Below, in pieces: positions 7,534 through 46,072 of a DNA stretch of 47,082 bases; within the stretch, counting starts at the first letter, position 1, and each line of letters begins with the position of its first letter. The position numbers were made by a program, and so were the translations under genes. The notes below the pieces were generated by a model. That model saw only the letters and a program-made list of their open reading frames with translations. It had not been told where the DNA came from and did not search any database. Source of the DNA: a virus; IMG/VR virus record IMGVR_UViG_3300046055_000016, positions 1 through 47,082 of that record; one strand, written 5' to 3'.

Positions 7534-7780
7534 CGTCGGCTTCCTCGCTGGCCCCACCACTGCCCAACTGACCGGTCTGGACAATGTCGCCAACCCTGAT
7601 CACGCACTCCATGACGAACGCGGAGCGGTTGATCGTGGCCATGTCGGGCTTGCGGGGCCCGCCGGCGTGGACTGTCGTGGGCGGATCCCCGTCAGGGAGC
7701 GTGGCCATGTAGGCGTGTGGCCACCACCGCCACAACATGCGCCATGCCAGCTCACAGGCCGCCATCTTGAGTCGGTGCAC
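7526..7780 (-). CDS. Hypothetical small protein
   Basis: GC3-rich frame. A GTG start lies 5 nt after AAGGAGA, with an alternative ATG at 7765. The stop overlaps the nuclease start. Confidence 0.55.
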   Translation of the reverse strand: MHRLKMAACELAWRMLWRWWPHAYMATLPDGDPPTTVHAGGPRKPDMATINRSAFVMECVIRVGDIVQTGQLGSGGASEEADDG

Positions 7781-7816
7781 CCTTGTCTCCTTTTGTGTGT
7801 GGACACGTAGCACAGG

Positions 7817-8092
7817 CTACTCGTCCTCGCCCTGCTCACCCTGGGCACCGCCAGCGCCGCCCTGAGTAACACCTTGGGAGGCTGGCTGCTTGGCCACCTT
7901 GCGCACGCCCTTGGGCTTTGCGCTTACGGGCTGTTTGATCGAGGTCTCAAGGCCCTTGAACGGCCCTGACGTGAAGCGGATGCGCACTCGGTGGGTGACC
8001 GAGTTTTGGCGGCGATCGACCTTCTCCACGATCGACAGCACCTCGACCTGAGACGAGAAGGTCTCGCCGACTTGTGGGCTCTCTGCCATCAT
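7817..8092 (-). CDS. Hypothetical protein with a basic, Gly-rich C-terminus
   Basis: ATGA overlap with the polymerase stop; GC3-rich; 91 aa. Confidence 0.6.
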   Translation of the reverse strand: MMAESPQVGETFSSQVEVLSIVEKVDRRQNSVTHRVRIRFTSGPFKGLETSIKQPVSAKPKGVRKVAKQPASQGVTQGGAGGAQGEQGEDE

Positions 8093-12080: not shown

Positions 12081-12102
12081 CGCATGCCCTGTGCGTGTGG
12101 AG

Positions 12103-13953
12103 CTAAGAGAAGTCGACTTCGATGACAACGCCGGTATCCTCAGCCCACCAGTACTTGGTGGCATTATCACTCTCAGATTGGGTGTAGAAAGTAACTGGAG
12201 ACTCGACATCTTTCGCTAACTCATCAAGTTCTTGTCTAACTATGTCGTTTTTTCCTTTGACAAGCTCGACTATCTCAGAAGTTGACAAAGCATTATCAGG
12301 ATCTCCCGTTTTCTCTAGCAACATATTCGTTACGCTGGTGCGGATGCGCTCTCGTGCACTGGTAGCTTGTGCTGAGTTGTCAATGCGACGCACGCGCGTT
12401 GATCCATCGCTTATTCCACCGACGGTGTAGACCACGCGCCTGGGCAAGCGCCCCAAGCGGTCCTTGTTGATCTTTAGGGCAATGCGGCCTTGCTTGGGGG
12501 GATCTAGGGCAAAGTCTGACTCCACCGTGACCATCCAAGCCACATCGGTCTTTGCCTTCTTGGCCCCAGCCCCACGGGCGTAGGTCCCTCGATCGTCTTT
12601 GGACTTGGTGACATGGTCGATGATGACCACCGTTGCCCCGTGTTTCGTTATCGGTATAATGAACGAATGATACCAAGACGTAATGTCTGAGTTGGAGTCT
12701 TCCTGAAGTTCTGCTTGGTCCAGCATGTCACTGCATGAGTCCATAACTACAATATCAGGGCTTATGCTCTGGAGATCATAAACCAACCGCTCTTCATCAT
12801 TTTGACTTATAGCTAAACCAGGAGACTCATAATACCAGAACTTATCATCAAGGGTGTCAGGGTCGGCGCCCATGCGTGAAAGGCGGTCTGCGGTTGTTGA
12901 CAATCCTGTTTCCTCGTCGATCCACATTACGGTATAGCCTTGATGGACCAACGAGGACATAATTGATAACAGCAATAGGCTCTTGCCCGACTCGGGTGGG
13001 CCCTGCCACCAATGGACCATGCCGGCATACAACACTCCCGACACGATCTGTTCGGGGTCGTTGACACCCTCGCGTATCGCTTGACCCACGAGACGGCGGT
13101 TTGGGATGCCTCGGCCCTTTTCCTCCTCGGCCTCGACCTGTAGCCAGGCAATGGCTGTATCGACGACCCCCTTGCCCAATAGCTTGGTCAAGGTGGGCCA
13201 CCCTTGAGTCTCACCGTCTTGGTCAAGGCGCCGCTGGGTCGTCTCGGCGTCCTGTTTGCGCTGAGGCCACTCCTCATCGCCACTGACTTGGGCCACAGCG
13301 GCTACGAACGCCTTGGTGGGCCCAATCTCCCAGCCACCCCGTAGCAAGCCGCCACACAGGGCCACAGCGGCGTCATGACGGCTCCCTTCCCCCGGCCAGT
13401 GACGCGCGAGCAGCGTGGCAGCGGCCAAGTGGGCCACACACTCGCTTAGCTCATCGCCGCTGGGATCACCCGGGTCCTGAGAGGTCCATACCCCGTCTCG
13501 GCGTACCTCGAGCCAGCCCATGACCTCGTTGGACGGGTGGGTCGACGGCGGCACGATCGTCTGAGACCCGGTCGAGCGCAGCTCGACCAGAGAGGCGCGG
13601 TCGGTCGGGTCGACGTACTTGGCTGTGGCCGGGCAGTTGCTGGTGGGCACCTGATACCACCAGTGGCTGCACAGGGCGCTGTGACGCCCATGGATCATGC
13701 GTGTCTCTGGCAACAGTGTGCTTGCCAGCTCGATCGCCTCGTGGGTGTCTAAGTCCACGTCGATGAGGCCGTAGCTGGGCTGGCCCAGCAGCAGGCCGAG
13801 GTTGCCCTCATCGGGGAAATAATGGTCGATGTCGTCGTGGTCGTAGCGCGCTTGAGGCCACCCCGGGAAGGTCGGCGCCTTGTTGCCCCACGCGATAGGC
13901 ACAGGGGCGTAGCCGCACCGCAGGGCGTAGCGAGCTGTGTCGATCACTCCCAT
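12103..13953 (-). CDS. Bifunctional primase-polymerase (prim-pol) / RepA-DnaB-like helicase
   Basis: The N-terminal prim-pol has GLIDVDLD and STGSQTIVPPSTHPS. The central P-loop is GPPESGKSLLLL, with Walker B IVVMDSCSD. SD is AAAGGAGA. Confidence 0.85.
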   Translation of the reverse strand: MGVIDTARYALRCGYAPVPIAWGNKAPTFPGWPQARYDHDDIDHYFPDEGNLGLLLGQPSYGLIDVDLDTHEAIELASTLLPETRMIHGRHSALCSHWWYQVPTSNCPATAKYVDPTDRASLVELRSTGSQTIVPPSTHPSNEVMGWLEVRRDGVWTSQDPGDPSGDELSECVAHLAAATLLARHWPGEGSRHDAAVALCGGLLRGGWEIGPTKAFVAAVAQVSGDEEWPQRKQDAETTQRRLDQDGETQGWPTLTKLLGKGVVDTAIAWLQVEAEEEKGRGIPNRRLVGQAIREGVNDPEQIVSGVLYAGMVHWWQGPPESGKSLLLLSIMSSLVHQGYTVMWIDEETGLSTTADRLSRMGADPDTLDDKFWYYESPGLAISQNDEERLVYDLQSISPDIVVMDSCSDMLDQAELQEDSNSDITSWYHSFIIPITKHGATVVIIDHVTKSKDDRGTYARGAGAKKAKTDVAWMVTVESDFALDPPKQGRIALKINKDRLGRLPRRVVYTVGGISDGSTRVRRIDNSAQATSARERIRTSVTNMLLEKTGDPDNALSTSEIVELVKGKNDIVRQELDELAKDVESPVTFYTQSESDNATKYWWAEDTGVVIEVDFS

Positions 13954-14119
13954 TGGGTCTCCTTTCTCGTCGAGGGGCGCCGCAGCCTACCGCACATAAG
14001 ACGGGCTTGTCTCGCGCGCGTGTGGGTATGGAAGCCGTCCCCCTCTCCCCACGCCCGCCAAGGGCGGGGGCGTGGGGAGATGGGGACAACAAGGGCTGTA
14101 ACCCCCGAATGTTGGGGTG

Positions 14120-14150
14120 TATATAGGGACAAGGCGTGCAAATCAGACAA
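14120..14150 (-). promoter_or_regulatory. Possible sigma70-like promoter for the primase operon (TTGTCT-N19-TATATA on the minus strand)
   Basis: Hexamers seen by eye. The 19-nt spacer is suboptimal. Confidence 0.25.
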
Positions 14151-14184
14151 TCGTGATGGAAGTGACACTCCCCAGCCACCTAGA

Positions 14185-14210
14185 CCCCAGAACGACCGAT
14201 TACGGACACC
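14185..14210 (-). promoter_or_regulatory. Conserved early intergenic motif, copy (minus strand GGTGTCCGTAATCGGTCGTTCTGGGG)
   Basis: One of five copies of rGTGyCCGTAATC-N5-6-GTTyTGGGG. It lies immediately after the stop of 14217..14858. Confidence 0.6.
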
Positions 14211-14216
14211 TGCTCG

Positions 14217-14858
14217 TTAGGCATCCGAGTCCTTGTCCTTGCGCCGGTGGTCGCGCGGGATGGTCTTGGGCGCGGGCTTGGTGACCAGCCGGCGGTCGGG
14301 GGGCTCGATCTTGGGGCCCTGATAGATGCGGGATAGGGACTCATCCCGCAGGCGCTCCATCTCGCCGGACTCGACCATTGCGATGATCTCGGGGATCTGT
14401 GGGTCACTGGCCCCCGACCACGAGTACTGCCACTGGCCGGGCTCTCTGGGGAAGTGGGTCTGCAACAGCTTGTACAGCGTCGACACGCGGATCTCGCGGC
14501 CAAGCTGCTCCTGCAGGTGGACCACCAGATCGCGCAGGTCCCAGAAGCTCGGGCCTTCCTCGAGGTCAGCCAGATCAATGGCCTGATCGTCGGGATCGAC
14601 CGATTGCGGGTCGATGCCGTCTCGCGGGTCGAAGCCGTCCTCGCCCCAGACCTCGTAGGCCGCGATCTGACGCTCTCGGGAGAGAGCGGGGCGCATCTCT
14701 GGCTCCCACTCACCGAGGAGATAGTCGTTGATGGCCGAGTTCAGGACATGCTGTGCTGACTCTTTGCGAACAGCGCACTTTCTCTGAAACAGGTATTTCT
14801 GCTGCTCGGTTAGCCTTACAAGCGCCGTTCTCGGCCGGGGCGGTCGCTTACCAGCCAT
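14217..14858 (-). CDS. Putative DNA-binding regulator with an N-terminal ribbon-helix-helix-like domain
   Basis: The N-terminus RTALVRLTEQQKYLFQRKCAVRKESAQHVLNSAINDYL fits a strand-helix-helix pattern. The ATG at 14858 is preceded by AGGAGG. A GAACGTTTGTT box lies about 20 nt upstream of the SD. Confidence 0.5.
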   Translation of the reverse strand: MAGKRPPRPRTALVRLTEQQKYLFQRKCAVRKESAQHVLNSAINDYLLGEWEPEMRPALSRERQIAAYEVWGEDGFDPRDGIDPQSVDPDDQAIDLADLEEGPSFWDLRDLVVHLQEQLGREIRVSTLYKLLQTHFPREPGQWQYSWSGASDPQIPEIIAMVESGEMERLRDESLSRIYQGPKIEPPDRRLVTKPAPKTIPRDHRRKDKDSDA

Positions 14859-14887
14859 GACCAAAACCTCCTAACTTGCCCTGATTG

Positions 14888-14899
14888 GAACGTTTGTTT
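14888..14899 (+). promoter_or_regulatory. GAACGTTTGTT box, copy 1
   Basis: Exact 12-mer GAACGTTTGTTT, shared with 15048..15059. Related copies are at 22011..22024 and 22050..22065. Confidence 0.5.
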
Positions 14900-14933
14900 A
14901 CGCTCGTCTGTTCCCACTACCGGGATCGTAGGT

Positions 14934-15040
14934 CCGGGGTGCCCCTCGCCTCGCTCGCAGTCTGTCTGGTTCCCCCCGTGTCCCCCCCCCCCTTTAGGGG
15001 GGGGCACAGGGGAACCGGGGCTGCGAGGCGGGCACCCCGG
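14934..15040. repeat. Long imperfect palindrome (~107 nt) centred on C11-TTTA-G8
   Basis: The left arm CCGGGGTGCCCCTCGCCTCGC...GGTTCCCCCCGTGTCCCCCCCCCCC pairs with the right arm GGGGGGGGCACAGGGGAACC...CTGCGAGGCGGGCACCCCGG. Confidence 0.85.
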
Positions 15041-15047
15041 GTTTATC

Positions 15048-15059
15048 GAACGTTTGTTT
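15048..15059 (+). promoter_or_regulatory. GAACGTTTGTT box, copy 2
   Basis: Exact 12-mer repeat of 14888..14899, on the other side of the long palindrome. Confidence 0.5.
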
Positions 15060-15185
15060 CGGAAGCGCTGAGTTGCCGTTTGTGGGCCTAGGTATCCTGG
15101 GGCGGACGCTTTGGTCTCCAGCGGGGCTAGCTTGCTCCACAGCAGGCAACTCAGCTCCATGTGAAGGCGGCCTGTAGGCAAAGCG

Positions 15186-15488
15186 TTAGCAGCACTCAAC
15201 GTGATAGCCGGCCACGTCGGCCTCCAGCAGGTCGGTGTCATCCAGCAACCCGTCGCAGGCTGGGCACTGATCGGGCACCTCGCTACTGCGCTTCGAGTCG
15301 GGGGCGGCGATCGCACAAACGGCAGAGTCCTGCCCTCGGAAAACCACGCGGTCGACCATGGCCGAGTACTTCATTCCGTCGGTATCGACGACATCGAGCA
15401 TGTCGCCAGCTTGGGCCGACGCGCTCTTGGCGGTGGCCCCCCAACTTCCATCGTTGAGCTTTTTGGGTGTGGCGCGAATGATCTTCAC
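15186..15488 (-). CDS. Hypothetical protein
   Basis: GTG start preceded by AAAGGGGA; GC3-rich; 100 aa; Cys-containing C-terminus (CPACDG...HVECC). Confidence 0.6.
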   Translation of the reverse strand: MKIIRATPKKLNDGSWGATAKSASAQAGDMLDVVDTDGMKYSAMVDRVVFRGQDSAVCAIAAPDSKRSSEVPDQCPACDGLLDDTDLLEADVAGYHVECC

Positions 15489-15500
15489 GATGTCCCCTTT

Positions 15501-15527
15501 CCCTAAAACCTCGGATTACGGGCACTA
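15501..15527 (-). promoter_or_regulatory. Conserved early intergenic motif, copy (minus strand TAGTGCCCGTAATCCGAGGTTTTAGGG)
   Basis: One of five copies. It lies between the stop at 15529 and the SD of 15186..15488. Confidence 0.6.
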
Positions 15528-15528
15528 G

Positions 15529-15882
15529 CTAGTTGGCTCCCTCTGGGGTATAGGTGAATGGATAAACGACCAACAGACACGTTGCCGTCTGAAACTCCAT
15601 GAACAACGGCTGCATCTCAATGTACATCCTGGACAAGTTGGCATGACCCAAGCCCAGCAAAATCATAGGTGCCCCCTCTTGGTGACACCATACCCCGACT
15701 GATACACGTCCGATGATTACCAGTTCCAGGAAGTCGCCGGTGTAGGCCCCGGCTGTGGAGTCCACCAGCCACTGGCGCAAGACTCTCTCGATGAGACCGC
15801 TGCACTCGTCGGCGGTGTCGGGCCGCTCGATCCAGGCCGTAAGGCCATATCGCAGATGCTCTCCCACCTCATGGCAGTCCAT
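15529..15882 (-). CDS. Hypothetical protein
   Basis: 117-aa ORF with GC3 bias and tight packing in the early operon. Confidence 0.55.
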   Translation of the reverse strand: MDCHEVGEHLRYGLTAWIERPDTADECSGLIERVLRQWLVDSTAGAYTGDFLELVIIGRVSVGVWCHQEGAPMILLGLGHANLSRMYIEMQPLFMEFQTATCLLVVYPFTYTPEGAN

Positions 15883-15920
15883 GCCCTACCCCACTTTCGG
15901 TCGATGATGCTGCTGTTGGC

Positions 15921-16700
15921 TCATAGCCCGGGGCCTGCCACATCGAGCTCGTATGCGCAACGAGGACAGTAATACACCTTCCAATCAGGGTCGTAGTGGA
16001 TCACACCACCAAGATCGTCGGGTAGCTCTTTCTCTTCCCTTTCTTCTAACGACAAGACATTGGTAAACGGATCATCGCCATGAGGGTTGGGATGCCACCC
16101 ATCGCTCGTTACGATGTACTCCTCCCATTGATCGCCTGTGAACTCCCAGACGTGGGAGCTTTGACGCTCTGCGGGGAGATCGTCTAAGCAGTGAACGATC
16201 ACTCTACGAAAAGAGAAAAAATCCTCAAGTTGGCTCACTCGAAAGGCGAACGGCGTGCTGGGCGTCAAACCAAGCTCGTCACACGTCTGCACGACGGCGA
16301 TCTGGTCGCCGACCTCGCCCTCGTCGAACACCCACCATCGAAAGTCATGGTCCAACGAGTGCGCATCGCTCAGGGTGTGTGAGGCAACGGCTTTGCCTAG
16401 CCCTCGCGCCCGGCCCCATCGATGCACAATCTCGTTGAGAGGGCTGCCACTGTCATAAAAACGGAACTGGTATAGATCCCTGGTCTCAACCCGATCGTAT
16501 TCCAAGCGATCCTTGAGAAAATGGAACGTCGACAGGACCGGCCAGCACTCGTCGCGACTGCCGCTGAGCCAGCCGTAAGGCTCGGCGGCGAGCTGACGCC
16601 GCTTCCCTGTCTTTGGCTTGCCCTTGTCGGCTGCGTAGTACAGGCCCATTGACTCACACAGCATGTGATCGAGCACTCGCATCGTCTGCGTGGGCATCAT
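15921..16700 (-). CDS. Hypothetical protein (259 aa) with a C-terminal CPRC motif
   Basis: ORF with GC3 bias; ATGA overlap with the upstream gene. Confidence 0.6.
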   Translation of the reverse strand: MMPTQTMRVLDHMLCESMGLYYAADKGKPKTGKRRQLAAEPYGWLSGSRDECWPVLSTFHFLKDRLEYDRVETRDLYQFRFYDSGSPLNEIVHRWGRARGLGKAVASHTLSDAHSLDHDFRWWVFDEGEVGDQIAVVQTCDELGLTPSTPFAFRVSQLEDFFSFRRVIVHCLDDLPAERQSSHVWEFTGDQWEEYIVTSDGWHPNPHGDDPFTNVLSLEEREEKELPDDLGGVIHYDPDWKVYYCPRCAYELDVAGPGL

Positions 16701-17002
16701 CGCACGTTCCTTTCATAGGCTGCGGCATCCTCGCGTTTGAGGGTGCAACGCTTGCAGCGATCATTCTCAGTGCTGGGGAATGTGACGCGCCTGCAGTGGT
16801 CACACCACTGTCGGTACTTGAGCTTTCTGTAACCCTCGAAGACGAGAACTGCTGGGATGACGATCATCATCACATAGCTACCTATAACAACAGTGAGGTA
16901 CGGGCCATAGGTGACAAGCAACACCCATGCGATGAGCCCAAGGATCACACAGAGCAGCATCCCAAGGGTGCCTGCGATGTTCTTGAGTGTTTCCATTGCC
17001 AT
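16697..17002 (-). CDS. Small membrane protein with a C-terminal zinc ribbon
   Basis: Three hydrophobic segments (LGMLLCVILGLIAWVLLV, LTVVIGSYVMMIVIPAVLVF), then CDHC...CKRC. SD is GGCAGGGGA. Confidence 0.6.
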   Translation of the reverse strand: MAMETLKNIAGTLGMLLCVILGLIAWVLLVTYGPYLTVVIGSYVMMIVIPAVLVFEGYRKLKYRQWCDHCRRVTFPSTENDRCKRCTLKREDAAAYERNVR

Positions 17003-17028
17003 CCCCTGCCTTATGTGTGCTGTGCGTT

Positions 17029-17763
17029 CTACAGCGAGTCGCCATACAAGTCGCGTGGGGTCACAATGATGGGATCCCCGTCGCGCGGGTCGATGTCCCA
17101 GGCGTCGAACTCGCCGTCCTCGTAGTGCACGCCAGGGTCGAGCGGGTGCGCGAGATCCAGGTCCTCGACGGAATAGCCCTGGTCGATTAGCTCTAACGTC
17201 AAGCGCAGATCATCGCGCAGGCGTTGCCTGATCTCCTCGGCTGCGCATCGTTGCTCATCCTCAACCTGAGCGACTAACTCAACAAGGGCCCGCTTGACGA
17301 CGCGCTCGGCGATCAGCTCGACATCGTCGTTTAGCTCTTTGGTGATGTCCAAGCCGTCGATGTAGGCTTGCCGATAAGCCGAGTTGGCAGGATCCGGCAA
17401 CAACCCCTCAACCGCGTCGTAGCTCAGATCCACGATGTGCTCGGTCGGCGGCATGAGCGTTCCACAAAAACACTGAAAGCGGTAATGCCCACCGATACAG
17501 CGTGGTTGGCTCGGATCCTCGAAGTGGGTGTGCAGGCCAATGGCGCCAGCGGCGATGTCCTGGCCACAGCCGTCACAGCGACGCTCCCACCGATGTGCAA
17601 CAGCGAGGTGGCAGCCCTTGGGGCAGACCCTGGCGGTCGTTGGTGGCACCCGAACCGATTGACTCTTTCGCTTGATCGTGACGGGCTCTTGCAGGGCGTT
17701 GTAGTCCCTGGCAACGTCACGCACGGCCGTAACGAGCATGTCGTGGATCCTTGCCTTATCCAT
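17029..17763 (-). CDS. Hypothetical Cys-rich protein
   Basis: Start set to the ATG at 17763 (MDKARIHD), preceded by GGAAGGGAGA. Several Cys/His clusters (CPKGCH, CDGCG, CFCG). Confidence 0.55.
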   Translation of the reverse strand: MDKARIHDMLVTAVRDVARDYNALQEPVTIKRKSQSVRVPPTTARVCPKGCHLAVAHRWERRCDGCGQDIAAGAIGLHTHFEDPSQPRCIGGHYRFQCFCGTLMPPTEHIVDLSYDAVEGLLPDPANSAYRQAYIDGLDITKELNDDVELIAERVVKRALVELVAQVEDEQRCAAEEIRQRLRDDLRLTLELIDQGYSVEDLDLAHPLDPGVHYEDGEFDAWDIDPRDGDPIIVTPRDLYGDSL

Positions 17764-17792
17764 AGCGTCTCCCTTCCTGTCCCTTGTGTGTG

Positions 17793-18080
17793 CTAGCCGG
17801 TTGGTTCCACGGTGGCAACGCCACCAAAGTCGGTTTCTTGCCAGCCATAGTCGTTGGGGCGACCACTGGTCACGACGCGCCATCCCATGTAACTCAATAC
17901 CCAATCGAGATCAATAGGGTTGTCCTCGTCTTGGGGTAGGTCGGCATGATCAACGACCCCGTCCTCTTCCACCCATGCCTGGCCATCGGGATCCCATACG
18001 TTTTTGACAACGAGGACTTCAGGGTCACCGTAATAGCCATCGGTCACGGCGTAAGCGGCGTAAGTCACTCGCTCGGTCAT
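17793..18080 (-). CDS. Small acidic protein, paralog family member 1
   Basis: Aligns by eye with 18096..18371 (MTE.V.Y...AV...PE..VV...WD...W...G.V...ED..N..D..VL...GW..V...FG.V..VEPTG). Confidence 0.65.
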   Translation of the reverse strand: MTERVTYAAYAVTDGYYGDPEVLVVKNVWDPDGQAWVEEDGVVDHADLPQDEDNPIDLDWVLSYMGWRVVTSGRPNDYGWQETDFGGVATVEPTG

Positions 18081-29222: not shown

Positions 29223-30074
29223 ATGGGTGACCAGATCGTCGTTGACTTCTCCAAGGCGGTCCCGCCCGAACAACAGCCCGATCCGCGGGTAGAGCTTCCT
29301 TCCCAAGCAGATAGCTCCAACCCAGCCAGAGATAGCTCTCCCCACTCGGTTGAGAGCGCTCAAGCAAGCGAGATCCAACAGCCCCTGGACCGTCCCGTCG
29401 CCGATGACGAGATTGAGGGCATCAAGGCCGCATTCGTGCGAACGGGGGGCAACCTGGCCCAGGTGGCCCGCGAGTTCTCCACCTCACCCGCCCGGGTCAA
29501 GTCGCTGGCCTTGAAGAATGGCTGGACGCTGTATGGGCGGGCCAAGTCGTCCCACGAGAAGGCTTCTACATCCCGACTTCAAGCCTTATCGCAAAGCCTG
29601 GAGGCAAAGCTCTACGAGCTATTGGCCTCGCTGGAGGTAGAGACCAAGGAATACCACGACGTGACCAAGGACGGGCTCAACAGCCAGTACGTGGCCAACC
29701 TGGCCTCGCGCAACAGCGCCTTCAAGGACGTCTTCGACCGCTACATGCGCGTCCAGGCCCTGCTCGAGCCCGAGACTTTTGGCGAGGACAAAAACAGCGC
29801 GGCTCGTCTGGCTCAGCAGAAAGCCTCCAGCTCCGATGGCCTTGGCGGCGTGGAGGGGGTCAATCGCCAGATCACCGCGCTGATCGCCGGGGTGGTCGTC
29901 ACTCAAGATCCAGTGTCCAAGCCACCCGACATGGAGGCGGCCCAGGTCATCGAGGCCACCCCGCCAGCAGACCCCGCTTCTCATAGCGGAGGTGACCCCG
30001 CCCCTTCCCCCGGCGAGGACGATATAGACCCCGACAGCAATACGGTTGATGACGCAAGCGACCTCCTGGAATGA
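29223..30074 (+). CDS. terS: Putative terminase small subunit
   Basis: HTH-like segment GGNLAQVAREFSTSPARVKSLALKNGW followed by coiled coil. ATGA overlap with terL. SD is AGGAGAGG. Confidence 0.6.
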   Translation: MGDQIVVDFSKAVPPEQQPDPRVELPSQADSSNPARDSSPHSVESAQASEIQQPLDRPVADDEIEGIKAAFVRTGGNLAQVAREFSTSPARVKSLALKNGWTLYGRAKSSHEKASTSRLQALSQSLEAKLYELLASLEVETKEYHDVTKDGLNSQYVANLASRNSAFKDVFDRYMRVQALLEPETFGEDKNSAARLAQQKASSSDGLGGVEGVNRQITALIAGVVVTQDPVSKPPDMEAAQVIEATPPADPASHSGGDPAPSPGEDDIDPDSNTVDDASDLLE

Positions 30075-30985
30075 AGACCGACGACTTGCCGGCCGCGCTG
30101 CGAGAGCTGTCCCAGGACGACCTGGTGGCCTTGAAGGAGCTAGTCGACAAGAAGGCGTGGCTGCGGGCCACGACCATCGCCGACTTCACTAGCAAGGAGC
30201 AACAGGCCATTGCCGATGCCAAGCGCCAGACGGGTGATGTGGCCCAGCGCCGGGTAAGGGATCGCTTCTATCAGCGCAAGCATTGGGACAGCCTGCGCTG
30301 GTTCCTCTTCGGCGGGCTCGTCGACATCACGGGGCTACCGATTGATCCGCAGCGGGCCTATGACCCCGATGACAACCCGTGGGTCAAGGTGAGAGTGGGA
30401 GGATGGGCTCAGACGCTGGATGAGCACGACGAGGCTAACCCCTACAAGACGCTGCCCGACAAGGACTACCTGCGCCTGCTTAGCTACGCCTGGGTCTTTC
30501 AGCCGCTGTTGCTGGTGCCCAAGAGCCGCCAGGTCATGGTCACCTGGCTGTTTTGCTGCATCGCCACCCACAACCTCCTTGTGCGCCCGGCACAGCGCAT
30601 GGCGGTGATCTCCAAGAAGTTTGAGGACGCCGACTCGCTGATCGACCGCATGGAGACGATCTACAACCGGCTGCCCCACAGCCGCTTTTCCGTGCCAGCC
30701 GCGTTCGATAAACACCGAAAAAGTGGTGAAGTGAGTTGCCCTCAGATGGAGTCTATTGTTCAGGCAATGGGCGAAGAAGCAAAAGGTCTAAGACAATATA
30801 CCTTCAGTTGGGTTTTTTCAGATGAAGTTTCTTTCCAAGATCAGGCAGATGATATTTTCAGGGCTGCGATGCCCACCGTCAAGGGAGGGGGGCGCTTCAC
30901 CGGGGTCAGCACGCCCAATGGTGAGGAGGTCTTTCACGCCACCCTGAGCGAGAATGGCCGCATCCCCGTGCCTGCTGGAGCCTGA
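30071..30985 (+). CDS. terL: Terminase large subunit, N-terminal ATPase core (separate ORF)
   Basis: Walker A-like VPKSRQVMVT, Walker B WVFSDEVSF, coupling motif VSTPNG. The stop at 30983-30985 comes 22 codons after STPNG. Confidence 0.75.
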   Translation: MKTDDLPAALRELSQDDLVALKELVDKKAWLRATTIADFTSKEQQAIADAKRQTGDVAQRRVRDRFYQRKHWDSLRWFLFGGLVDITGLPIDPQRAYDPDDNPWVKVRVGGWAQTLDEHDEANPYKTLPDKDYLRLLSYAWVFQPLLLVPKSRQVMVTWLFCCIATHNLLVRPAQRMAVISKKFEDADSLIDRMETIYNRLPHSRFSVPAAFDKHRKSGEVSCPQMESIVQAMGEEAKGLRQYTFSWVFSDEVSFQDQADDIFRAAMPTVKGGGRFTGVSTPNGEEVFHATLSENGRIPVPAGA

Positions 30986-30996
30986 GGAGCTTTCCT

Positions 30997-31167
30997 ATGC
31001 CGGTGCACGCAGGCAAGGACAGCCAAGGCCACTACTATCAGTACGGGAACCAGGCCAAGTACCACTACACCGCTGGCGACGAACAGAGCCGCAAGCGAGC
31101 CAAGCGCAAGGCCTACATGCAACAGGCCGCCATCGAGGCCAACCCCAACAGCAGCAGCAGCGAGTAA
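30997..31167 (+). CDS. 56-aa basic protein encoded between the two terL ORFs
   Basis: Too short for the ORF track. The ATG lies 8 nt after GAGGAG. It translates to MPVHAGKDSQGHYYQYGNQAKYHYTAGDEQSRKRAKRKAYMQQAAIEANPNSSSSE. Its third codon positions are almost all G/C, unlike the other two frames here. Confidence 0.55.
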   Translation: MPVHAGKDSQGHYYQYGNQAKYHYTAGDEQSRKRAKRKAYMQQAAIEANPNSSSSE

Positions 31168-31169
31168 CC

Positions 31170-32276
31170 ATGCCCGAGGCGCACGCGGACGGCAGCGACG
31201 CGGGGGAGTTCACGTTCAAGCTGCCACGCACGCGCATCCCCGAGCCGATCATGCCCGGCATCCGGGGCTGGAAGACCAGCGATGGCTATCTCGTGTTGCG
31301 CCTGCACTACACCGCCGACCCCGACCGCTCAACACAAGAGTGGCGTGATCACTACGTCATGGGTTACCGAGGGGGCTTTCAAGGCCGCGACTGGCAACGC
31401 GAGATGGAGATCGACTTCACCGCCTTCTCCGGTGAGGCCGTCTATTCCCAGTTCGACCCCAACAACAGCGTGCGACCCACGCGCTACAACCCCCGGGTGC
31501 CGCTGTGGCGTGGCTGGGACTTCGGCTATCGCCACCCGGCCGTGGTGTGGGCCCAACTGTGGCCCGACGACACGCTGGTCTGCTTGCACGAGCTGTATCC
31601 CACCATCGACCGCGACCAGCTCGCTGGCTTGTCCACCCACCAGTTGGCCAAGAAGGTCATTGATCAGACCCAGCGCCTGTTTCCCCAAGCCCTTGAGCAA
31701 GACAGCGCAGGGATCGCCGACTTCTGCGATCCGGCGGGCAATCAGCGCAAGGAGAACAGCGAGTTCTCCTCTATCGAAGTTTTGAACCAGTTTGGCATCG
31801 ACCCCGAGTGGTCGGTCGTGGGCCGCAAGAACCGCATCAACTACCTGCGCGAGTACGTCGAGCGCGAGGGCAAGTTCCGCGTCAACCCCCACTGCACGCT
31901 GCTGATCAAGGCGTTGTCCTCGGCCTACCGATACCCCGAGGCCGATGCGGGCACCGGTGATCGCGAGATGCCCGATCTGGGCAAGAAGGTCCAAGAGGAG
32001 CCGTATGTCCACCTCATGGATGCCTTGGAGTACATCGCTGCCTGCAACCTCGACATCGGCATCACATCAAACCTCGCGGACTTGGAAGATGACGAGAGTG
32101 AGTCCCACATCTCCGAGCTGGCAAAGATTTATCTGCAGGCCAACGACCAGGACGTACGCCAGGCTCCCACCGTCGACGACTCAAGCCCTGAGCTAACCGA
32201 GGAGCTTACCCCGGCTGACTTAGTCGGAGAAGAGACAGACGAGGACTCACTCGATGATATGTGGCTGTTATCCTAA
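31170..32276 (+). CDS. terL: Terminase large subunit, lid subdomain plus nuclease domain (separate ORF)
   Basis: LRLHYTADP...WQREMEIDF...VY fits a lid subdomain. RGWDFGYRHPAVVWAQL...CLHELY resembles the first RNase H-like nuclease motif. The ATG at 31170 lies 2 nt after the stop of the micro-ORF. Confidence 0.7.
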   Translation: MPEAHADGSDAGEFTFKLPRTRIPEPIMPGIRGWKTSDGYLVLRLHYTADPDRSTQEWRDHYVMGYRGGFQGRDWQREMEIDFTAFSGEAVYSQFDPNNSVRPTRYNPRVPLWRGWDFGYRHPAVVWAQLWPDDTLVCLHELYPTIDRDQLAGLSTHQLAKKVIDQTQRLFPQALEQDSAGIADFCDPAGNQRKENSEFSSIEVLNQFGIDPEWSVVGRKNRINYLREYVEREGKFRVNPHCTLLIKALSSAYRYPEADAGTGDREMPDLGKKVQEEPYVHLMDALEYIAACNLDIGITSNLADLEDDESESHISELAKIYLQANDQDVRQAPTVDDSSPELTEELTPADLVGEETDEDSLDDMWLLS

Positions 32277-32293
32277 ATCGCGGAGGTCACAAC

Positions 32294-33229
32294 ATGGCCA
32301 ATGTCCAGATCCTGCCCAAGCCAAAAACGTCGCCCATGACGTGTGTCGTCTCCGGCGACGGTCGGGGGCCGGTGCTCGACCTTGGCCGTGACATCAACGG
32401 CTATGGACGTTTGTACGTCAAGATCGACGCCATCGCCAAGCCGCTGCGTCAACAGGGCTGGGTCGACCCGGACCAGGCCGCCAAGCTGCGCGATCAGGCA
32501 GCCCAAGAGGAAGCTCGTGCGAACCACTTGCAGGACCAGGCCGACAAGTACCAAGAGCTGGTCATGCGCCTGGCCGATGCGGCCGCCGAGATCATGCCCT
32601 CACCCGAGGCCGAGGTGATCACCGAGACCAGAGAGACCGTACGCGATCCCACGCGCGACGAGATCGAGCAGTGGCTCATCGAGCACCCCAACCACCCCCT
32701 GCTCAGACACCACCAGCCCCCCGAGCCAGGCAGCGCAGCCGAGCACGAGCAGCTTTACGGCGCGCCGCACCAGCGCCGCAAGGCCAAGCACTACGCCGAC
32801 GTGGCCCGCAAGCGCGCCGAACAGACCCAGCAACAGCAAAGCACCGCGCCCACCACCCAGCAGGACCACGGCCAGCCATCCACGCCCATGACCACTCAGC
32901 TCCAGGGCCAAGAGGTCGACATCGACGCCCTGCTGGCTGAGAAGGTGGCCGACATCATCGCCTTCTGTGAGGGCCACTCCGAGGAGTTTCGCACCCAGGT
33001 GGTCAATCGCGAGCTAGAGTTGGCCGATCGCGGCTATGGGCGTGCGCGCAAGGGGCTGATCACCGGCCTTGGCTTTGAGTTCGTCGAGGGAGCCCGGGAC
33101 CAGGACTACGACCAGCCCATCGACCCCCGGGGTGAGGGCAAGGACGCCAGCGCCGATGAGGACTCCACTGAGCCGGTCGACGAGGACGAGCTGATCGTCG
33201 ATGACGACGAGCAAGGAGAGACGCCGTGA
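32294..33229 (+). CDS. Hypothetical protein
   Basis: ATG at 32294 after GGAGG; 311 aa; charged, low-complexity C-terminal half. Confidence 0.55.
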   Translation: MANVQILPKPKTSPMTCVVSGDGRGPVLDLGRDINGYGRLYVKIDAIAKPLRQQGWVDPDQAAKLRDQAAQEEARANHLQDQADKYQELVMRLADAAAEIMPSPEAEVITETRETVRDPTRDEIEQWLIEHPNHPLLRHHQPPEPGSAAEHEQLYGAPHQRRKAKHYADVARKRAEQTQQQQSTAPTTQQDHGQPSTPMTTQLQGQEVDIDALLAEKVADIIAFCEGHSEEFRTQVVNRELELADRGYGRARKGLITGLGFEFVEGARDQDYDQPIDPRGEGKDASADEDSTEPVDEDELIVDDDEQGETP

Positions 33230-41489: not shown

Positions 41490-42170
41490 ATGCAACTGGC
41501 CGAGATCGTGGCCCAGGCGATTGCTCAGGCGGTGGGGCCCTCTCAGCCCGAGCGGGCCGTGGATGTCAGCTACGAGTTCATCAAAGCGATGGTCAACAAG
41601 GGCTATCGCGAGATCGAGCGGGCCGCGACCTGGCGCTTCTCGGAAAGCGAATACGAGGCCAATGCGGTCGTGGGCCAGCGTGAGTTCTCGCTGCCCGACG
41701 ATGTCAATCTCATCCTGGGCGTGCGCAACGTCACGCTGCGGGCCAACCTGGACTACATCGACGAGCGCCAGGGTCAACCCGATTGGGGTACGCCCGGCAA
41801 CCCCTTGACGGGACGGGTCGAGGCCTACTCGTACTGGCGGGGCCAACTGCGGCTGTGGCCGGTGCCCAACAAGGCCGACCTTTTGCGGGTGCAGTACTAC
41901 AAGGTCTGGCCGCAGTTGGCCGCCGACGACGACGAGCCGATCTTTCCCGAGACGTGGCACTCGCTGCTGGTGGACTACGCCACCTCGGCGCTGATCCTGC
42001 GCATGCCGGCGGTCAACGGGCGCTATCTCTCCGAGAGCGAGGCGCGCCCGTTTACCGAGAGCTTCTGGCGCGACCTGGAGCGCATGAAGGCAAGCCGCCT
42101 GACGCAGACGATCGGCGACGAGGTCGTGTCCCACGACTTCGAGGCGTTGCTGGCCGAAGGGCACTGGTAA
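41490..42170 (+). CDS. Putative head-tail adaptor or tail-proximal structural protein
   Basis: ATG at 41490; 226 aa; called from position and general sequence character only. Confidence 0.35.
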   Translation: MQLAEIVAQAIAQAVGPSQPERAVDVSYEFIKAMVNKGYREIERAATWRFSESEYEANAVVGQREFSLPDDVNLILGVRNVTLRANLDYIDERQGQPDWGTPGNPLTGRVEAYSYWRGQLRLWPVPNKADLLRVQYYKVWPQLAADDDEPIFPETWHSLLVDYATSALILRMPAVNGRYLSESEARPFTESFWRDLERMKASRLTQTIGDEVVSHDFEALLAEGHW

Positions 42171-43723
42171 TGCCCGCTCAAGTCCAGCTCGTCTCGGAGT
42201 TTCAAGGGCTGTGGGCCGGCCGGCGCCGGCCACTGCACACCGACCGGCGCCCACTGAACACGCCCAGAGACATCACCAACATGCTGCCCGATGACAACAA
42301 CCACCTGTGGATGCCCCCCGCCCCCGATGGGGTGGAGGCAAACATCGGAGTTGGCCACATCTCACAGATCGTATGGTCGGTCATCGGCGGCTTTTTCGCC
42401 CAGCAGGGCAACAAGCTCTACGCCTCAGACCGCGATCCCAGCGAGGCCGACAACTTCACCTGGCACGAGATCATCTCGGATCTGTACTCCGATGAGACCG
42501 TGTGGGTGACTTCCTTTGGCTACGCCGAGCCCAATGTCACGCCCAGGGTCTATGTGGGAAACACCAGCCACACCTGGCGCATCGAGGCGACCGGGGCCAA
42601 CACCTGGGACGTGACCGATCTGACCTCGCAACTGGATGGCTTCCATGGCTGGGCCAGCTTCCAACACCTGGGCCGGCGCTGGGTGGCCCGCGATAGCCAG
42701 TTGATCTACTTCTCGGGGATCAATCAGCCAGAGAGCTTTACCGAGGAGGAGTTCATCAACGTCGGGGGTGGGAGCATCGGGAGTGATGCCTCCACCTTCC
42801 CAGGGGAGGTCACTGGCTTCTTTCTGTGGGAGACCAACCTCGGGATCATGTGTGCCGGCTCGATGTGGGTCCTCTCTGGGACCACGCTGGATACTTTCCA
42901 CCTGCGCCGTCTGCCGCATCAGATCGGCAGCCAGGGGCGCACGACGGCCCACTACAGCGACATTGGCCAGGGCATGGCCTTCCTTGGCGGTGAGCGCGAC
43001 GGGGCCATGGGCGTCTACGTCTTTCGCGGCTCGCGCCCACAAAAGATCAGCCAGCCCATCGACGAGTTCTTCCAGTCGTGGCAACTGGAGTACGACACGG
43101 TGCCGGCCGATCCCGAGCCCTATATCCGGGTTCGCGAGGCCCTGGGCCAGTACGCCATCGCAGCTCGATACCGCAACTACTACATCCTGTCGTTCTCACC
43201 GGCCGACGATCAGCGCCAGGTCTACATCCTCAACATCGACACCCAGAAGTGGACGACGTTCACCGGTTGGGGCAGCGAAGGCCCAGCGGTGGCGGTAGTC
43301 CACGACTACTACCACCCGCAGCGCCTACTCATTGGCACCGACGACGGCGACATTCACGAGGCCACCACGGCCTTTCCCCGCCGCCCGGGAGAAACGGCCT
43401 CGTTCGTGCTGGGCTGGTCCGATCAGGACCGCCCGTTGAGCTTACAGCGCTTCCTTGGCGTCAAGATCCATGGCTGGCACGTAGGCTCGGGCACGCCGAA
43501 GATCACCGTGGGCGCTGAGACCGACAACGCCGGCACAGCCTCGCGGGGCCCCTTCGATCTGCCCACGCAAGTCTTCGACGGGTTCGTCGTGCCCATCAAC
43601 GTGCGTGGGGCGGCCATCGAGCTGACCGTCACCATCACCCCGACGGCCGACGACGACGAGGTGTTGATCGAGGGGCTAGAGTTGATCACTTCCCGAAAAG
43701 GCGAGAAAATGAGTCGACAATAA
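42170..43723 (+). CDS. Putative tail (nozzle/tubular-type) structural protein
   Basis: TAATG overlap with the upstream gene; 517 aa; beta-rich; called from position. Confidence 0.35.
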   Translation: MPAQVQLVSEFQGLWAGRRRPLHTDRRPLNTPRDITNMLPDDNNHLWMPPAPDGVEANIGVGHISQIVWSVIGGFFAQQGNKLYASDRDPSEADNFTWHEIISDLYSDETVWVTSFGYAEPNVTPRVYVGNTSHTWRIEATGANTWDVTDLTSQLDGFHGWASFQHLGRRWVARDSQLIYFSGINQPESFTEEEFINVGGGSIGSDASTFPGEVTGFFLWETNLGIMCAGSMWVLSGTTLDTFHLRRLPHQIGSQGRTTAHYSDIGQGMAFLGGERDGAMGVYVFRGSRPQKISQPIDEFFQSWQLEYDTVPADPEPYIRVREALGQYAIAARYRNYYILSFSPADDQRQVYILNIDTQKWTTFTGWGSEGPAVAVVHDYYHPQRLLIGTDDGDIHEATTAFPRRPGETASFVLGWSDQDRPLSLQRFLGVKIHGWHVGSGTPKITVGAETDNAGTASRGPFDLPTQVFDGFVVPINVRGAAIELTVTITPTADDDEVLIEGLELITSRKGEKMSRQ

Positions 43724-44058: not shown

Positions 44059-44553
44059 ATGCCACAGGTCGGCGAGCAAGAACGCGAACGAAAAAGCCGT
44101 CAAGGGGGTAGTGGCGGCGGCCAACAGGGCGCGGGTCGCCCCCAAGCCCCCTTCTTCGACCCGATGCTGTCCTACAACCAGCGTCGGCGCCAGTATAACC
44201 TGTCAACCGGTCGGGCCGATCGTCAGCTCCAGAGCGAGCGCATGATCCAAGACGCAAAGCTCATGCGCCCCTACATGGAGCGCCGCTTCGGCCAACAGCT
44301 CGAGGCAACAGCCGGGTCACTGGCCAACCGGGGGCTGACCGGCTCGGGGCTCATGGGCAAGAAGCTGGGCCAGGTGGCCCAGGATCAGGCGCGCCAGCGC
44401 GGCCAGTTCGAGCGCGAGCTGGCCCAGGGCCTGTCGGATCTGGGGCGCCAGGACGCCAGGCAAACCGCCGAGAGCGTCATGAGTGGCGCCGAGGACGTGC
44501 GCAGAGGCGCCGGGCGGGCAACTAAGCGCGCCGTCAACGCCTTGCCCTTCTAA
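44059..44553 (+). CDS. Hypothetical basic protein (internal virion protein candidate)
   Basis: 164 aa; R/Q/G-rich. Confidence 0.45.
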   Translation: MPQVGEQERERKSRQGGSGGGQQGAGRPQAPFFDPMLSYNQRRRQYNLSTGRADRQLQSERMIQDAKLMRPYMERRFGQQLEATAGSLANRGLTGSGLMGKKLGQVAQDQARQRGQFERELAQGLSDLGRQDARQTAESVMSGAEDVRRGAGRATKRAVNALPF

Positions 44554-44563
44554 GGGGGACTCA

Positions 44564-46072
44564 ATGGCTCGCAACCCCAACCGCGAGGTTCGCAAGAACC
44601 TGGTCCCGAGCGCAGAGCAGATGAGGGCCAGGGGTGGCTTTCTCATCGAGGACGAGGCTGGGCGACGGGCTCGCTTGAACGCCCAACCCAACACCCCACA
44701 GGGAGGGGGCTATCCCTACGCCGGCCAGCCCTTGCCAACTCAGCCCGGGGGCACCGCCGGGGTGCCAGTCTCGCCCACCCCTTCCGGTGGTGTGGATGCT
44801 GGCGGTGGCCAGCCGGATAACACCCGTCGGGCCCCGCCAACGCAGCCCAACTATGGCCTAGGCGAGCCCATGACCTCCACCACGGGCTATGGCGCCCCGC
44901 CGACCCAGCCCAACTACGGCATCGAGGGTGATCCGTCAGCAGTGGGCGATGAGGACCCCACGATGATGGACATGCTCCAATCCATGCTCGAGGAGCAACA
45001 GGCCCAGCAGGAAGAGATCAAGCGCCAGATCGGCGCCTCCTACGACAAGCAGAAGGAAGCGATCCTGGGCCAAAAGCCCATCATGAAGGAGGCCGCTCAG
45101 CGCACTCAGGGCAATATCGGCGACTTCTACGGCTATGCCGCCGAGCAGGCAAAGGCCGGTCGTGCACCCATCCAGCAGGCATACGTAGGTGCTCAAGCAA
45201 CAGCCGAGGAGGCCTACGGAGAAGCAAGAGAGCAAGTCGCTGGCACACCAGAGCAGTACGCCGAGCTGGCAAAGCAGGCCGGTGGTGCCGGTGCCGGTGA
45301 GGGCGTGGCCGAGCGGGTCGCCCAGGCAGCCGGGCCCTTCGATGCCGCCCTGGCCTCGGGGCAGGCATCGGTCAAGGGCAACCTGGCCCAAAGCCAGGCA
45401 GCCGGGGAGAGCTATCTGGGCCAGTTGGCTGCAGCCGCCCCCTCGGAGGCCGCCCAGCAGCAGGCCCAAGTGTCGACTGCGCTCAACCAGCAGTTGCAGG
45501 ACCTACAGCTCAAGGCTGCTCAACTGGAAGGTGAGAAGCAGCGCGCCATGCTCCAAGCCAGCAACGACGCCAGTGGCGATGTGTTCGACCGCATGATGAA
45601 GATGCAGCGCTTGGAGATGGCAAAGGAGAAGCACGAAAAGGAGATGGCCGAGGCCGAAAGGGGCGAGCAAGACCCCATGGCCGGCATGGACCTGCGCGAG
45701 CGCCTGAAAACTCGCAGGCTGCAACAGGAGATGACCGATCCCAGACAACAGGACAACCCCCAAGAGGCCCTGGACATGTTCCTCAACCAGCAGTTCGGTG
45801 ATCAGCCAAGCACCCAACAGATTTATGAGCAGCTTGCGGGGCTGGCCAACCAGCGCATCCAAGAACCGGATGCCTCACACGCTGGAGTCATCCAAGACCT
45901 AGTCAGTCAGCTCCAGGCTCCCGACCAGCGACAGGCCGTTGGCACTGAAGCCGATCCGCGCATGGGTCTGGCCAAGGAGCTGGGCTTGGACAGCCCCGCT
46001 CGGATCTATCGCCTCGATCCGGCCAAGGCGCGTCGAGCGATGCGCTTGCTCACGGGGGTCTACACCGAGTAG
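44564..46072 (+). CDS. Hypothetical coiled-coil protein (internal virion protein candidate)
   Basis: ATG at 44564 after AGGGGGA; 502 aa; P/G-rich N-terminus and a long Q/A/E-rich helical region. Confidence 0.5.
   Translation: MARNPNREVRKNLVPSAEQMRARGGFLIEDEAGRRARLNAQPNTPQGGGYPYAGQPLPTQPGGTAGVPVSPTPSGGVDAGGGQPDNTRRAPPTQPNYGLGEPMTSTTGYGAPPTQPNYGIEGDPSAVGDEDPTMMDMLQSMLEEQQAQQEEIKRQIGASYDKQKEAILGQKPIMKEAAQRTQGNIGDFYGYAAEQAKAGRAPIQQAYVGAQATAEEAYGEAREQVAGTPEQYAELAKQAGGAGAGEGVAERVAQAAGPFDAALASGQASVKGNLAQSQAAGESYLGQLAAAAPSEAAQQQAQVSTALNQQLQDLQLKAAQLEGEKQRAMLQASNDASGDVFDRMMKMQRLEMAKEKHEKEMAEAERGEQDPMAGMDLRERLKTRRLQQEMTDPRQQDNPQEALDMFLNQQFGDQPSTQQIYEQLAGLANQRIQEPDASHAGVIQDLVSQLQAPDQRQAVGTEADPRMGLAKELGLDSPARIYRLDPAKARRAMRLLTGVYTE

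Follow-up and report, generated by a model that had tools for sequence, protein, structure and literature searches.

How is the DNA-packaging motor of a virus encoded when the chain of its terminase large subunit (TerL) is interrupted by another gene? The question is raised by the IMG/VR virus record IMGVR_UViG_3300046055_000016, of which positions 1 to 47,082, here called the window, were analyzed at their full length of 47,082 nucleotides. In the window, the ATPase and the nuclease of TerL are not found on one polypeptide. They are distributed over two open reading frames (ORFs), termed terL-N and terL-C, which lie in different frames and have a further small gene, termed the micro-ORF, between them. 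On the basis of profile searches, structural models, and a survey of related loci, it is judged probable, at roughly 0.8, that two adjacent genes give rise to this TerL in the form of two polypeptides. The two chains would presumably reassemble non-covalently into a motor protomer. Relatives are referred to below by locus (L) and protein (P) numbers.

The two terminase ORFs and the position of the break

The two ORFs and the motifs that identify the first of them are as follows, with residue numbers counted within each protein.

30071..30985, plus strand: terL-N, 304 amino acids (aa), comprising an N-terminal helical region and an ASCE/RecA-like ATPase core (subdomain I)
30521..30544, plus strand: deviant Walker A motif, K151-S-R-Q-V-M-V-T158, opposite SRQLGKT of T4 gp17 in the profile alignment
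30803..30826, plus strand: Walker B motif and catalytic glutamate, FSWVFS-D251-E252 (residues 245-252), opposite MIYIDE of gp17
30908..30922, plus strand: motif III (coupling motif), STPNG, residues 280-284, opposite TTPNG of gp17
30956..30982, plus strand: conserved C-terminal tail of terL-N, GRIPVPAGA, which includes copy 1 of a direct repeat (30959-30972)
31170..32276, plus strand: terL-C, 368 aa, with its ATG at 31170 and in a frame that differs from that of terL-N

The first ORF is matched by the PHROG family phrog_2 (terminase large subunit) at profile positions 253-406 with an E-value of 2.4e-9, and a profile built from 30 terL-N homologues aligns with residues 152-300 of T4 gp17 (E 1.4e-11). 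The AlphaFold model of terL-N has a pLDDT of 87.8. Its top Foldseek matches in the PDB are the ATPase of T4 gp17 (3cpe and 2o0j; E 5e-10 to 8e-10) and the ATPase of P74-26 TerL, and further matches include the TerL proteins of HK97, D6E, and Sf6. The original prediction, which was made from the sequence alone, had read KSRQ, DE, and STPNG as the ATPase motifs of this ORF. All three are present and align to gp17, while the stop codon that it had placed 22 codons past STPNG in fact follows after 20 codons.

The Walker A motif is deviant in that the position of the canonical GK(T/S) lysine is occupied by valine, and the GK(T/S) lysine itself is absent. Residues P150, K151, S152, R153, and Q154 (PKSRQ) are invariant across the 30 terL-N homologues, and K151 may be the phosphate-binding lysine, by analogy with KSARVGYS of lambda gpA. 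Walker B residues D251 and E252, as well as G284 of motif III, are likewise invariant. The C-terminal tail has the consensus GRIPxPAG, in which G303 does not vary and I298 and P301 hardly do; the model of terL-N on its own shows this tail as disordered (pLDDT 40-55). The ratio of nonsynonymous to synonymous substitution rates (dN/dS) of terL-N is 0.017-0.064 against the relatives L009, L010, and L002, denoting strong purifying selection, and the G+C content at its third codon positions (GC3) is 0.75.

The second ORF consists of a β-hairpin and a lid/transmission subdomain (residues ~20-90), an RNase H-like nuclease (~100-295), and an acidic C-terminal tail. It is matched by phrog_2 at positions 421-587 (E 1.1e-9) and by phrog_10250 (E 9.7e-10). 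In the model of terL-C, the nuclease part has pLDDT values mostly above 85, and residues ~20-95 form three strands and several helices at lower confidence. The model matches D6E TerL with an E-value of 8e-9 over 210-261 columns, which is beyond the span of the nuclease alone, and it also matches HK97 TerL and the nuclease of RB49 gp17. The terL-C family profile found no match among PDB sequences, so that fold comparison was needed. The acidic residues D117, D187, and D284 are invariant in homologues, and dN/dS against the same three relatives is 0.056-0.082. The GC3 of terL-C is 0.82.

Because the phrog_2 segments of terL-N and terL-C are consecutive, the two ORFs represent consecutive parts of one protein family. 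terL-N runs 13 residues past the point aligned to gp17 residue 300, placing its end near gp17 residue ~313. In gp17, subdomain II is composed of residues 1-58 and 314-353, and the hinge comprises residues 354-364 (PMC3074133). Since terL-N ends at about gp17 313 and subdomain II resumes at 314, the chain is broken where subdomain I meets subdomain II (transmission, or lid), which leaves the lid, the hinge, the nuclease, and the acidic tail on terL-C. The break is located in a surface loop between the two ATPase subdomains. The predicted order of an ATPase ORF followed by a lid and nuclease that restart at the ATG at 31170 in another frame is thus upheld by the coordinates, by profiles (PHROG and gp17), and by Foldseek.

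Other searches were less informative. Pfam gave nothing significant for either terL half or for the micro-ORF, the halves being identified by PHROGs, and a single-sequence search of PDB sequences with the halves returned weak matches only. Among the large ORFs of the window, no other terminase was found.

The split across relatives and the possible joining of the halves

The same architecture is widespread. A total of 106 loci from Logan, ENA, JGI, IMG/VR, and GTDB genomes were surveyed and scored with profiles of both halves, and 84 of these are non-redundant loci with both terL parts. TerL is split at the same structural position in 59 of the 84 and fused in 25. By profile, the N-half match ends at ~280-294 and the C-half match starts at ~17-38. 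The break is constant in the split loci, with the N ORF ending right after the helix that follows motif III and the C ORF opening just ahead of a conserved hairpin, G-[IL]-[KR]-x-W...HY[ST]ADP. Fused TerLs belong mainly to the most distantly related loci, which form a clade and appear to be prophages in metagenome-assembled genomes.

The approximately 77 terL-N homologues, with identities between 99 and 47%, all have lengths of 284-334 aa, and nearly all of the approximately 75 terL-C homologues are 335-391 aa long; in round figures, the halves measure ~300-320 and ~340-390 aa, respectively. The long exceptions are two intein-containing alleles (P0073 and P0103) and a fusion to the downstream gene (P0156). 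The split is retained from 99% down to ~30% identity, no continuous terL was found among relatives at 47-99% identity, and the ends at the break are conserved in sequence, both at the C-termini of the N-halves and at the N-termini of the C-halves. That terL is genuinely divided in two, as had been proposed for the window, is borne out by these numbers. Judged from the sequences compared, the split is old, stable, and characteristic of a large radiation of uncultivated phages. A blastn search of the deposited phage genomes in INPHARED gave no match, and tblastn with either half retrieved distant fused TerLs only; therefore, no cultured or deposited relative from the split clade was found.

Changes of frame are a common artefact in metagenomic contigs, and the split could on these grounds be ascribed to a sequencing or assembly error, or to a terL pseudogene in a defective element. 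However, the same architecture recurs in independent assemblies from JGI, ENA, and Logan. Decay is contradicted by the dN/dS values of both halves (0.017-0.082) and their invariant catalytic residues, as well as by the full set of replication and structural genes in the window and the lack of a second terL. The probability of an artefact or of a decayed gene is close to nil.

The spacing and the relative frames of the two ORFs vary among lineages. The C ORF is in frame 0, +1, or +2 relative to the N ORF in 18, 17, and 24 lineages, respectively. In 22 of 53 lineages, the C-half has its own start codon between -26 and +30 nt relative to the N stop codon, including six exact ATGA overlaps, and the remaining 31 harbor 94 to >2200 nt of foreign coding sequence between the halves. 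In its simplest form, the arrangement is an ATGA overlap, from which coupled translation with a roughly 1:1 output of the two chains would be expected.

This variation bears on the proposal that a single fused TerL is still produced by recoding, i.e., by a programmed frameshift, by long-range bypassing in the style of T4 gene 60 or Hau3, or by stop-codon readthrough. Recoding of a terminase has a precedent in Streptomyces phage Hau3, which has 10-nt coding gaps (PMC10732093), and in some relatives (e.g., L046, L075, and L087) the two ORFs lie in one frame, with only a lone stop codon and a few nucleotides between them. In opposition to this, all three relative frames (0, +1, and +2) occur, the gaps extend from overlaps to >2 kb with whole genes, and every C-half has a start codon of its own. 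In the window, the 184-nt gap encodes a conserved protein, and the spacer RNA has no exceptional structure. The nominal 5′ extension of terL-C (30954..31169) has a GC3 of 0.50, and this upstream-extension frame is not under purifying selection. Because frames and distances vary across lineages, a conserved frameshift or bypass signal is excluded. The original prediction had regarded a frameshift fusion as unlikely on account of the poor GC3 of the extension; the extension is as poor as described, and with all three relative frames and separate C starts on record, recoding is indeed very unlikely.

A second route to a single chain would be the joining of the halves by a small self-splicing intron in the spacer or by split-intein trans-splicing. 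The terL genes of other phages often hold group I introns, the splicing of which has been shown in Jug phages (PMC12880540), and inteins are present in this very TerL family. However, an Rfam scan of 30600-31500 with all 4227 models (E <= 10) yielded noise only, and the spacer RNA folds no better than shuffled sequences (z = +0.96), in agreement with the earlier view that the spacer holds no group I intron. Moreover, many relatives have no spacer that could be removed, and for this reason an intron is excluded. A split intein requires ~130 residues, whereas only ~20 extra residues are present at the break by comparison with fused homologues such as P0088. The ends at the break (...PAGA and MPEAH...) also have neither the Cys/Ser start nor the His-Asn plus nucleophile end, and the genuine intein of this TerL family, in P0073, looks entirely unlike them. 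Splicing at either the RNA or the protein level is therefore extremely improbable. The lack of a splicing element, together with the individual start and stop codons and the use of all three relative frames, favors separate expression of the halves.

Some observations weigh against the reading of two separately made chains, or against parts of it. The same-frame lineages with just a stop codon between the ORFs may form a low level of fused product by readthrough. On a crude neighbor-joining tree, a few fused genes fall inside the split clade, and since they nest there the split may have arisen once or several times, or may have been undone by re-fusion. The lid part of terL-C is modeled at moderate confidence only (pLDDT 55-76), and its residue-level mapping onto D6E is a weak sequence match (E ~1) that is supported by Foldseek.

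Four IMG/VR loci within the mostly split radiation (L052, L055, L058, and L081) have fused TerLs with an insertion of 49-69 residues exactly at the split position. From the pattern of sequences, the break loop is evidently a general hotspot for insertions and breaks.

The micro-ORF, other junction cargo, and the origin of the break

The spacer between the terL halves (30986..31169) is 184 nt long, and the three ORFs use three different frames. It harbors the following elements.

30997..31167, plus strand: micro-ORF, 56 aa, basic (pI 9.3), in the third frame of the spacer
30984..30989, plus strand: Shine-Dalgarno element GAGGAG of the micro-ORF, overlapping the TGA of terL-N and 7 nt before the micro-ORF ATG

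The micro-ORF had been considered coding because of its GAGGAG element and its preference for G or C in third positions. Its GC3 is 0.86, and its dN/dS is 0.07 against L009 and 0.05 against L010 in its own frame only, with values above 1 in the other two frames. The GAGGAG element is kept in loci L008-L010 and L001. The gene itself is retained in L009, L010, and L002; the last of these (79% identity) has kept a homologous protein of 58 aa, MPVHGGRDSKGPFYQYGGQKKYHY...SRKRAKRKAHMQESAIE. The 3′ end of the gene is an AGC (Ser) repeat, the length of which varies among relatives. By these measures, the micro-ORF is a real gene under strong purifying selection.

The TAA of the micro-ORF is followed by CC and then by the ATG of terL-C, leaving 2 nt between the two genes. 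In L008 (2740-2795), L009, and L010, the micro-ORF stop and the terL-C ATG are instead separated by ~19-22 nt that contain an AAGG Shine-Dalgarno-like element, and the window (31146-31169) is without this stretch, being reduced to TAA-CC-ATG. Because the AAGG element is lost, initiation of terL-C in the window is probably coupled to termination of the micro-ORF. Expression would thus probably proceed from terL-N via the micro-ORF to terL-C by coupled translation.

An exhaustive HMMER search of a library of 1.84 billion representatives identified 172 cluster representatives at E <= 1e-3, which share the motif MPVhxGKDSKGxYYQWGxxxKYYY...SRxxAxxKAxxQxxAI. This family is widespread among small proteins of phages. 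Some members stand alone and are 50-70 aa long, and others form an N-terminal module in larger proteins, among them prohead proteases of the XkdF and Mu-I types and a GNAT acetyltransferase. The two stand-alone members examined are found in other genomic contexts and not beside the TerL family, with that of L113 being near a lysozyme gene. For the micro-ORF and its module, there was no Pfam or PHROG family, no Rfam match, and no nuclease domain, and a word-indexed protein search with the micro-ORF returned two near-identical proteins only. A small basic protein tied to head assembly or to DNA is the most that its sequence would allow one to propose.

Other lineages harbor different genes at the same place. 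HNH/NUMOD3 endonucleases are found at the junctions of L021, L024, L031, and L071. The junction of L041 has a weak LAGLIDADG match, an APS kinase, and a cytidylyltransferase, and those of L076, L045, and L085 have a Cpn10 (GroES-like), an NAD-dependent epimerase, and a CTP_transf_3 protein, respectively. Small basic proteins with pI values of 9.3-12 occur at the junctions of the window, L002, L005, L016, L022, and L030. In L005 (67% identity), two unrelated small ORFs replace the micro-ORF, one encoding a very basic protein of 47 aa, MPFKSEKQRRYMHANHP..., and the other a hydrophobic peptide of 36 aa. In terms of gene content, the terL junction is a preferred insertion site for unrelated small or foreign genes. 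It represents a clear case of a defined insertion hotspot that gathers homing endonucleases, auxiliary metabolic genes, and tiny proteins.

The micro-ORF product might nonetheless be a functional third component of the terminase, either an adaptor that clamps the two halves or a DNA-binding accessory protein. Unrelated lineages (the six named above) repeatedly have tiny, very basic proteins at this place, the micro-ORF module is also fused to prohead proteases, which links it to head assembly, and the gene is translationally sandwiched between both terL halves. Against such a role, many split lineages have nothing between the halves, the micro-ORF is swapped for an unrelated small protein in L005, its family is found elsewhere in other contexts (e.g., beside the lysozyme gene in L113), and the junction also takes plainly unrelated cargo. 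A third terminase component is thus improbable, and the recurrence of tiny basic proteins at the junction is possibly a weak hint of function. Because many split lineages have a bare junction and others have different cargo, the micro-ORF is better described, from what the loci contain, as an optional passenger that is not part of the split architecture. The original prediction of a packaging ATPase in two polypeptides with a tiny basic protein at the break therefore holds in that the tiny gene is real and conserved; as an element of the break it does not, the gene being a separable passenger that is missing from the bare ATGA junctions of many relatives.

A further suggestion concerns the split itself, which could be a selected architecture rather than a tolerated scar, serving either a tuned or gated assembly of the motor, in which basic proteins of the junction would act as partners for assembly or DNA binding, or escape from host sensors of the intact TerL fold. 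Avs-type STAND NTPases bind TerL (e.g., PDB 8dgc), and 8dgc is among the Foldseek matches of the terL-N model. An adaptive split of this kind is doubtful. If it were true, the junction would be a conserved and highly expressed cargo slot for the acquisition of late genes.

A trace of the event that broke the gene may be present on both sides of the junction, in the form of a direct repeat.

30959-30972, in the tail of terL-N: direct repeat copy 1, CGCATCCCCGTGCC, 14 nt
31233..31246, plus strand, in terL-C: direct repeat copy 2, CGCATCCCCGAGCC, 14 nt

The repeat reads CGCATCCCCG(T/A)GCC, and both copies are codon-aligned on R-I-P-x-P. A direct repeat of this kind arose in 1 of 100 shuffles. In the subfamily of the window, the new ends have conserved extra tails, namely GRIPxPAG, with which TerL-N closes, and FKLPxTRxPEP, with which TerL-C opens. 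Recombination between the repeat copies would be expected to fuse the two TerL halves in frame, the resulting loop having its normal length. The duplicated R-I-P-x-P codons may thus be the scar of a mobile gene insertion. Weighing against this, the repeat is clear at the DNA level only in the close lineage of the window and is much weaker in L002, which makes it only suggestive as an insertion scar. The split most likely arose by insertion of a mobile gene into a fused ancestor, in the manner of "genes in pieces".

The TerL proteins of T4 (gp17), P74-26, D6E, and lambda (gpA) have the same ATPase core, lid, and RNase H-like nuclease in the same order. The canonical TerL is a single chain, whereas here it is cut between core and lid into two genes and has the deviant Walker A sequence KSRQxxVT. 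In models of the motor, the lid/transmission subdomain is thought to rotate and transmit force (PMC5727402; PMC3074133). Such models have the force relayed inside a single chain, out of the ATP-hydrolyzing core via this subdomain and the hinge to the nuclease. Because the cut is at the core/lid boundary, the force-transmitting piece resides on a separate polypeptide from the core that hydrolyzes ATP.

The closest documented analogue would appear to be nrdA of Aeromonas phage Aeh1, which is cut by the homing endonuclease gene mobE and the halves of which reassemble via tails made by the insertion (PMC3045599). As in Aeh1, an essential enzyme is encoded in two ORFs, the products of which would have to reassemble with no splicing of RNA or protein, and endonuclease genes are found between the halves in L021, L024, L031, and L071. 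The ends of the TerL halves at the break have short split-specific tails, which may be comparable to those of Aeh1. In contrast to Aeh1, the TerL split is ancient and spans a large radiation, most lineages are without an endonuclease, the junction accepts cargo in general, and the insert in the window is not an endonuclease.

Interruptions of terL are known from other phages. Group I introns in the terL of Jug phages are spliced such that one polypeptide is restored (PMC12880540), and terL inteins are found in Microcystis phage Mic1 (PMC7156551) and in actinobacteriophages (bioRxiv 10.1101/2025.01.02.630785). In Jug, Twort-like, and Mic1 phages, terL is likewise favored by mobile elements, but their introns and inteins restore one chain, whereas the break described here has no splicing element. 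In Hau3, too, non-homologous sequence breaks up the terminase frame (PMC10732093). Its gaps measure 10 nt, are non-coding and UUA-marked, and the product is one protein; in the present family, a gene fills the gap or no gap exists, and both frame and length differ among relatives. Thus, interrupted terL genes are already known, yet the documented cases restore a single chain.

Separation of the ATPase and the nuclease at the genomic level is not confined to phages. In herpesviruses, pUL15 is encoded in two exons, with other genes between the ATPase and nuclease parts, and is spliced into one chain. It resembles the TerL split in the genomic separation of these parts, but belongs to a eukaryotic virus and is spliced as mRNA. 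In the annotation of some actinobacteriophages, the terminase is given as an "ATPase domain" gene and a separate "nuclease domain" gene; hence, two-gene terminases as such may not be unprecedented. In the open-access papers and preprints searched, there was no two-gene TerL that is cut inside the ATPase domain and no cargo site at a terL junction.

The retention of the cut across a large phage radiation implies that a covalent link between core and lid is dispensable. The split TerLs offer a natural system for the study of inter-subdomain coupling, subunit stoichiometry, and motor assembly. TerL is also a standard marker for phage detection, completeness, and phylogeny. Because the halves (~300-370 aa) miss Pfam thresholds, phages of the split clade are easily mis-annotated or scored as lacking a terminase.

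The AT-rich patch and the flanking genes

The Walker B region of terL-N had been singled out as an AT-richer patch upstream of the split, and the base composition agrees.

30701..30865, plus strand: AT-rich synonymous patch in terL-N, GC3 of 0.33 over 55 codons versus 0.84 in the rest of the gene

The G+C content at ~30700-30850 is 0.40-0.45, compared with ~0.63 around it. Of all blocks in the family, the one encoded by the patch, MGEEAKGLRQYTFSWVFSDE..., is the most conserved, and L002 and L005 use GC-rich codons for it. It diverges less than its flanks among close relatives, with 0-2 versus 3-6 differences per 45 nt in L008 and L009. A stretch of ~40 nt within it (30710-30745, KHRKSGEVSCP) is nearly identical in L002 (~6650-6690; 79%), and other synonymous sites mostly differ. 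To judge by the shared letters, this upstream third of the patch is a sign of mosaic gene conversion between lineages.

The same region is an insertion site for inteins. P0073 of locus L001, the exteins of which are 99% identical, harbors a LAGLIDADG intein of 255 codons (PF14528; L001:300-1064). The intein is inserted at WVF/C...HN/SDE, which corresponds to the boundary between positions 30817 and 30818 of the window, between F249 and S250, and its flanks are equally AT-rich. Homologous inteins occupy the same Walker B site in the distant P0089 and a lid site in the C-half, EMEVDF/S, in P0103. The window is an empty allele at both intein sites.

On these grounds, the patch is probably a gene-conversion tract that was left by double-strand-break repair at a LAGLIDADG intein homing site, with a donor of lower G+C content. 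Two points weigh against this origin. No low-GC donor emerged, as two pattern scans of IMG/VR gave close relatives only and a metagenome pattern scan gave two unrelated chance matches. In addition, the P0073 intein has a G+C content of 54%, above that of its flanks, which misfits a simple co-transfer of intein and flanks.

The patch could instead be maintained by selection on the nucleotide sequence itself, as a recognition site for packaging, as a regulatory element inside the gene, or as a means of slowing translation. The lower divergence relative to flanking codons in L008 and L009 would be consistent with such selection, as would one promoter-like match on the minus strand (30882-30854). 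However, the patch is mostly missing from relatives at 79% and 67% identity, where GC-rich codons specify the same residues. It also lies around the position at which a 99%-identical relative has its homing-endonuclease intein, and low divergence would follow just as well if a conversion had recently spread in the population. The promoter and terminator scan as a whole was at chance level (1 match versus 0.6 expected). Selection on the nucleotide sequence is thus unlikely, and a gene-conversion tract is preferred. The patch is unrelated to the split, which lies 110-280 nt downstream.

The terL locus is flanked by a likely small-terminase gene and the portal gene. The former is an ORF of 283 aa at 29223-30074, the stop codon of which overlaps the terL-N ATG (ATGA, 30071-30074). 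It is likely to be the small terminase by its position; it has no significant Pfam or PHROG family, with DUF1737 (E 0.009) being the best match. Downstream of terL-C is an ORF of 322 aa (32261-33229) without a family match. In L012, a homologue of this ORF is fused in frame to the TerL C-half (P0156, 556 aa; L012:959-2791), which suggests that the 322-aa protein is functionally linked to the terminase.

Three further ORFs, at 111-4193 (1360 aa), 41783-43723 (646 aa), and 44483-46072 (529 aa), were without a match in Pfam or PHROG under the thresholds applied. The minus strand at 4595-17904 encodes a family A DNA polymerase, a helicase, a primase, a PD-(D/E)XK nuclease, and an AAA_24 ATPase, and the plus strand at 25905-46072 encodes the terminase, a P22-type portal, and the major head protein. 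The layout of the window is podovirus-like over ~47 kb, and the window may be a nearly complete genome. The 98%-identical relative L010 is located on an IMG/VR contig of 46,150 bp.

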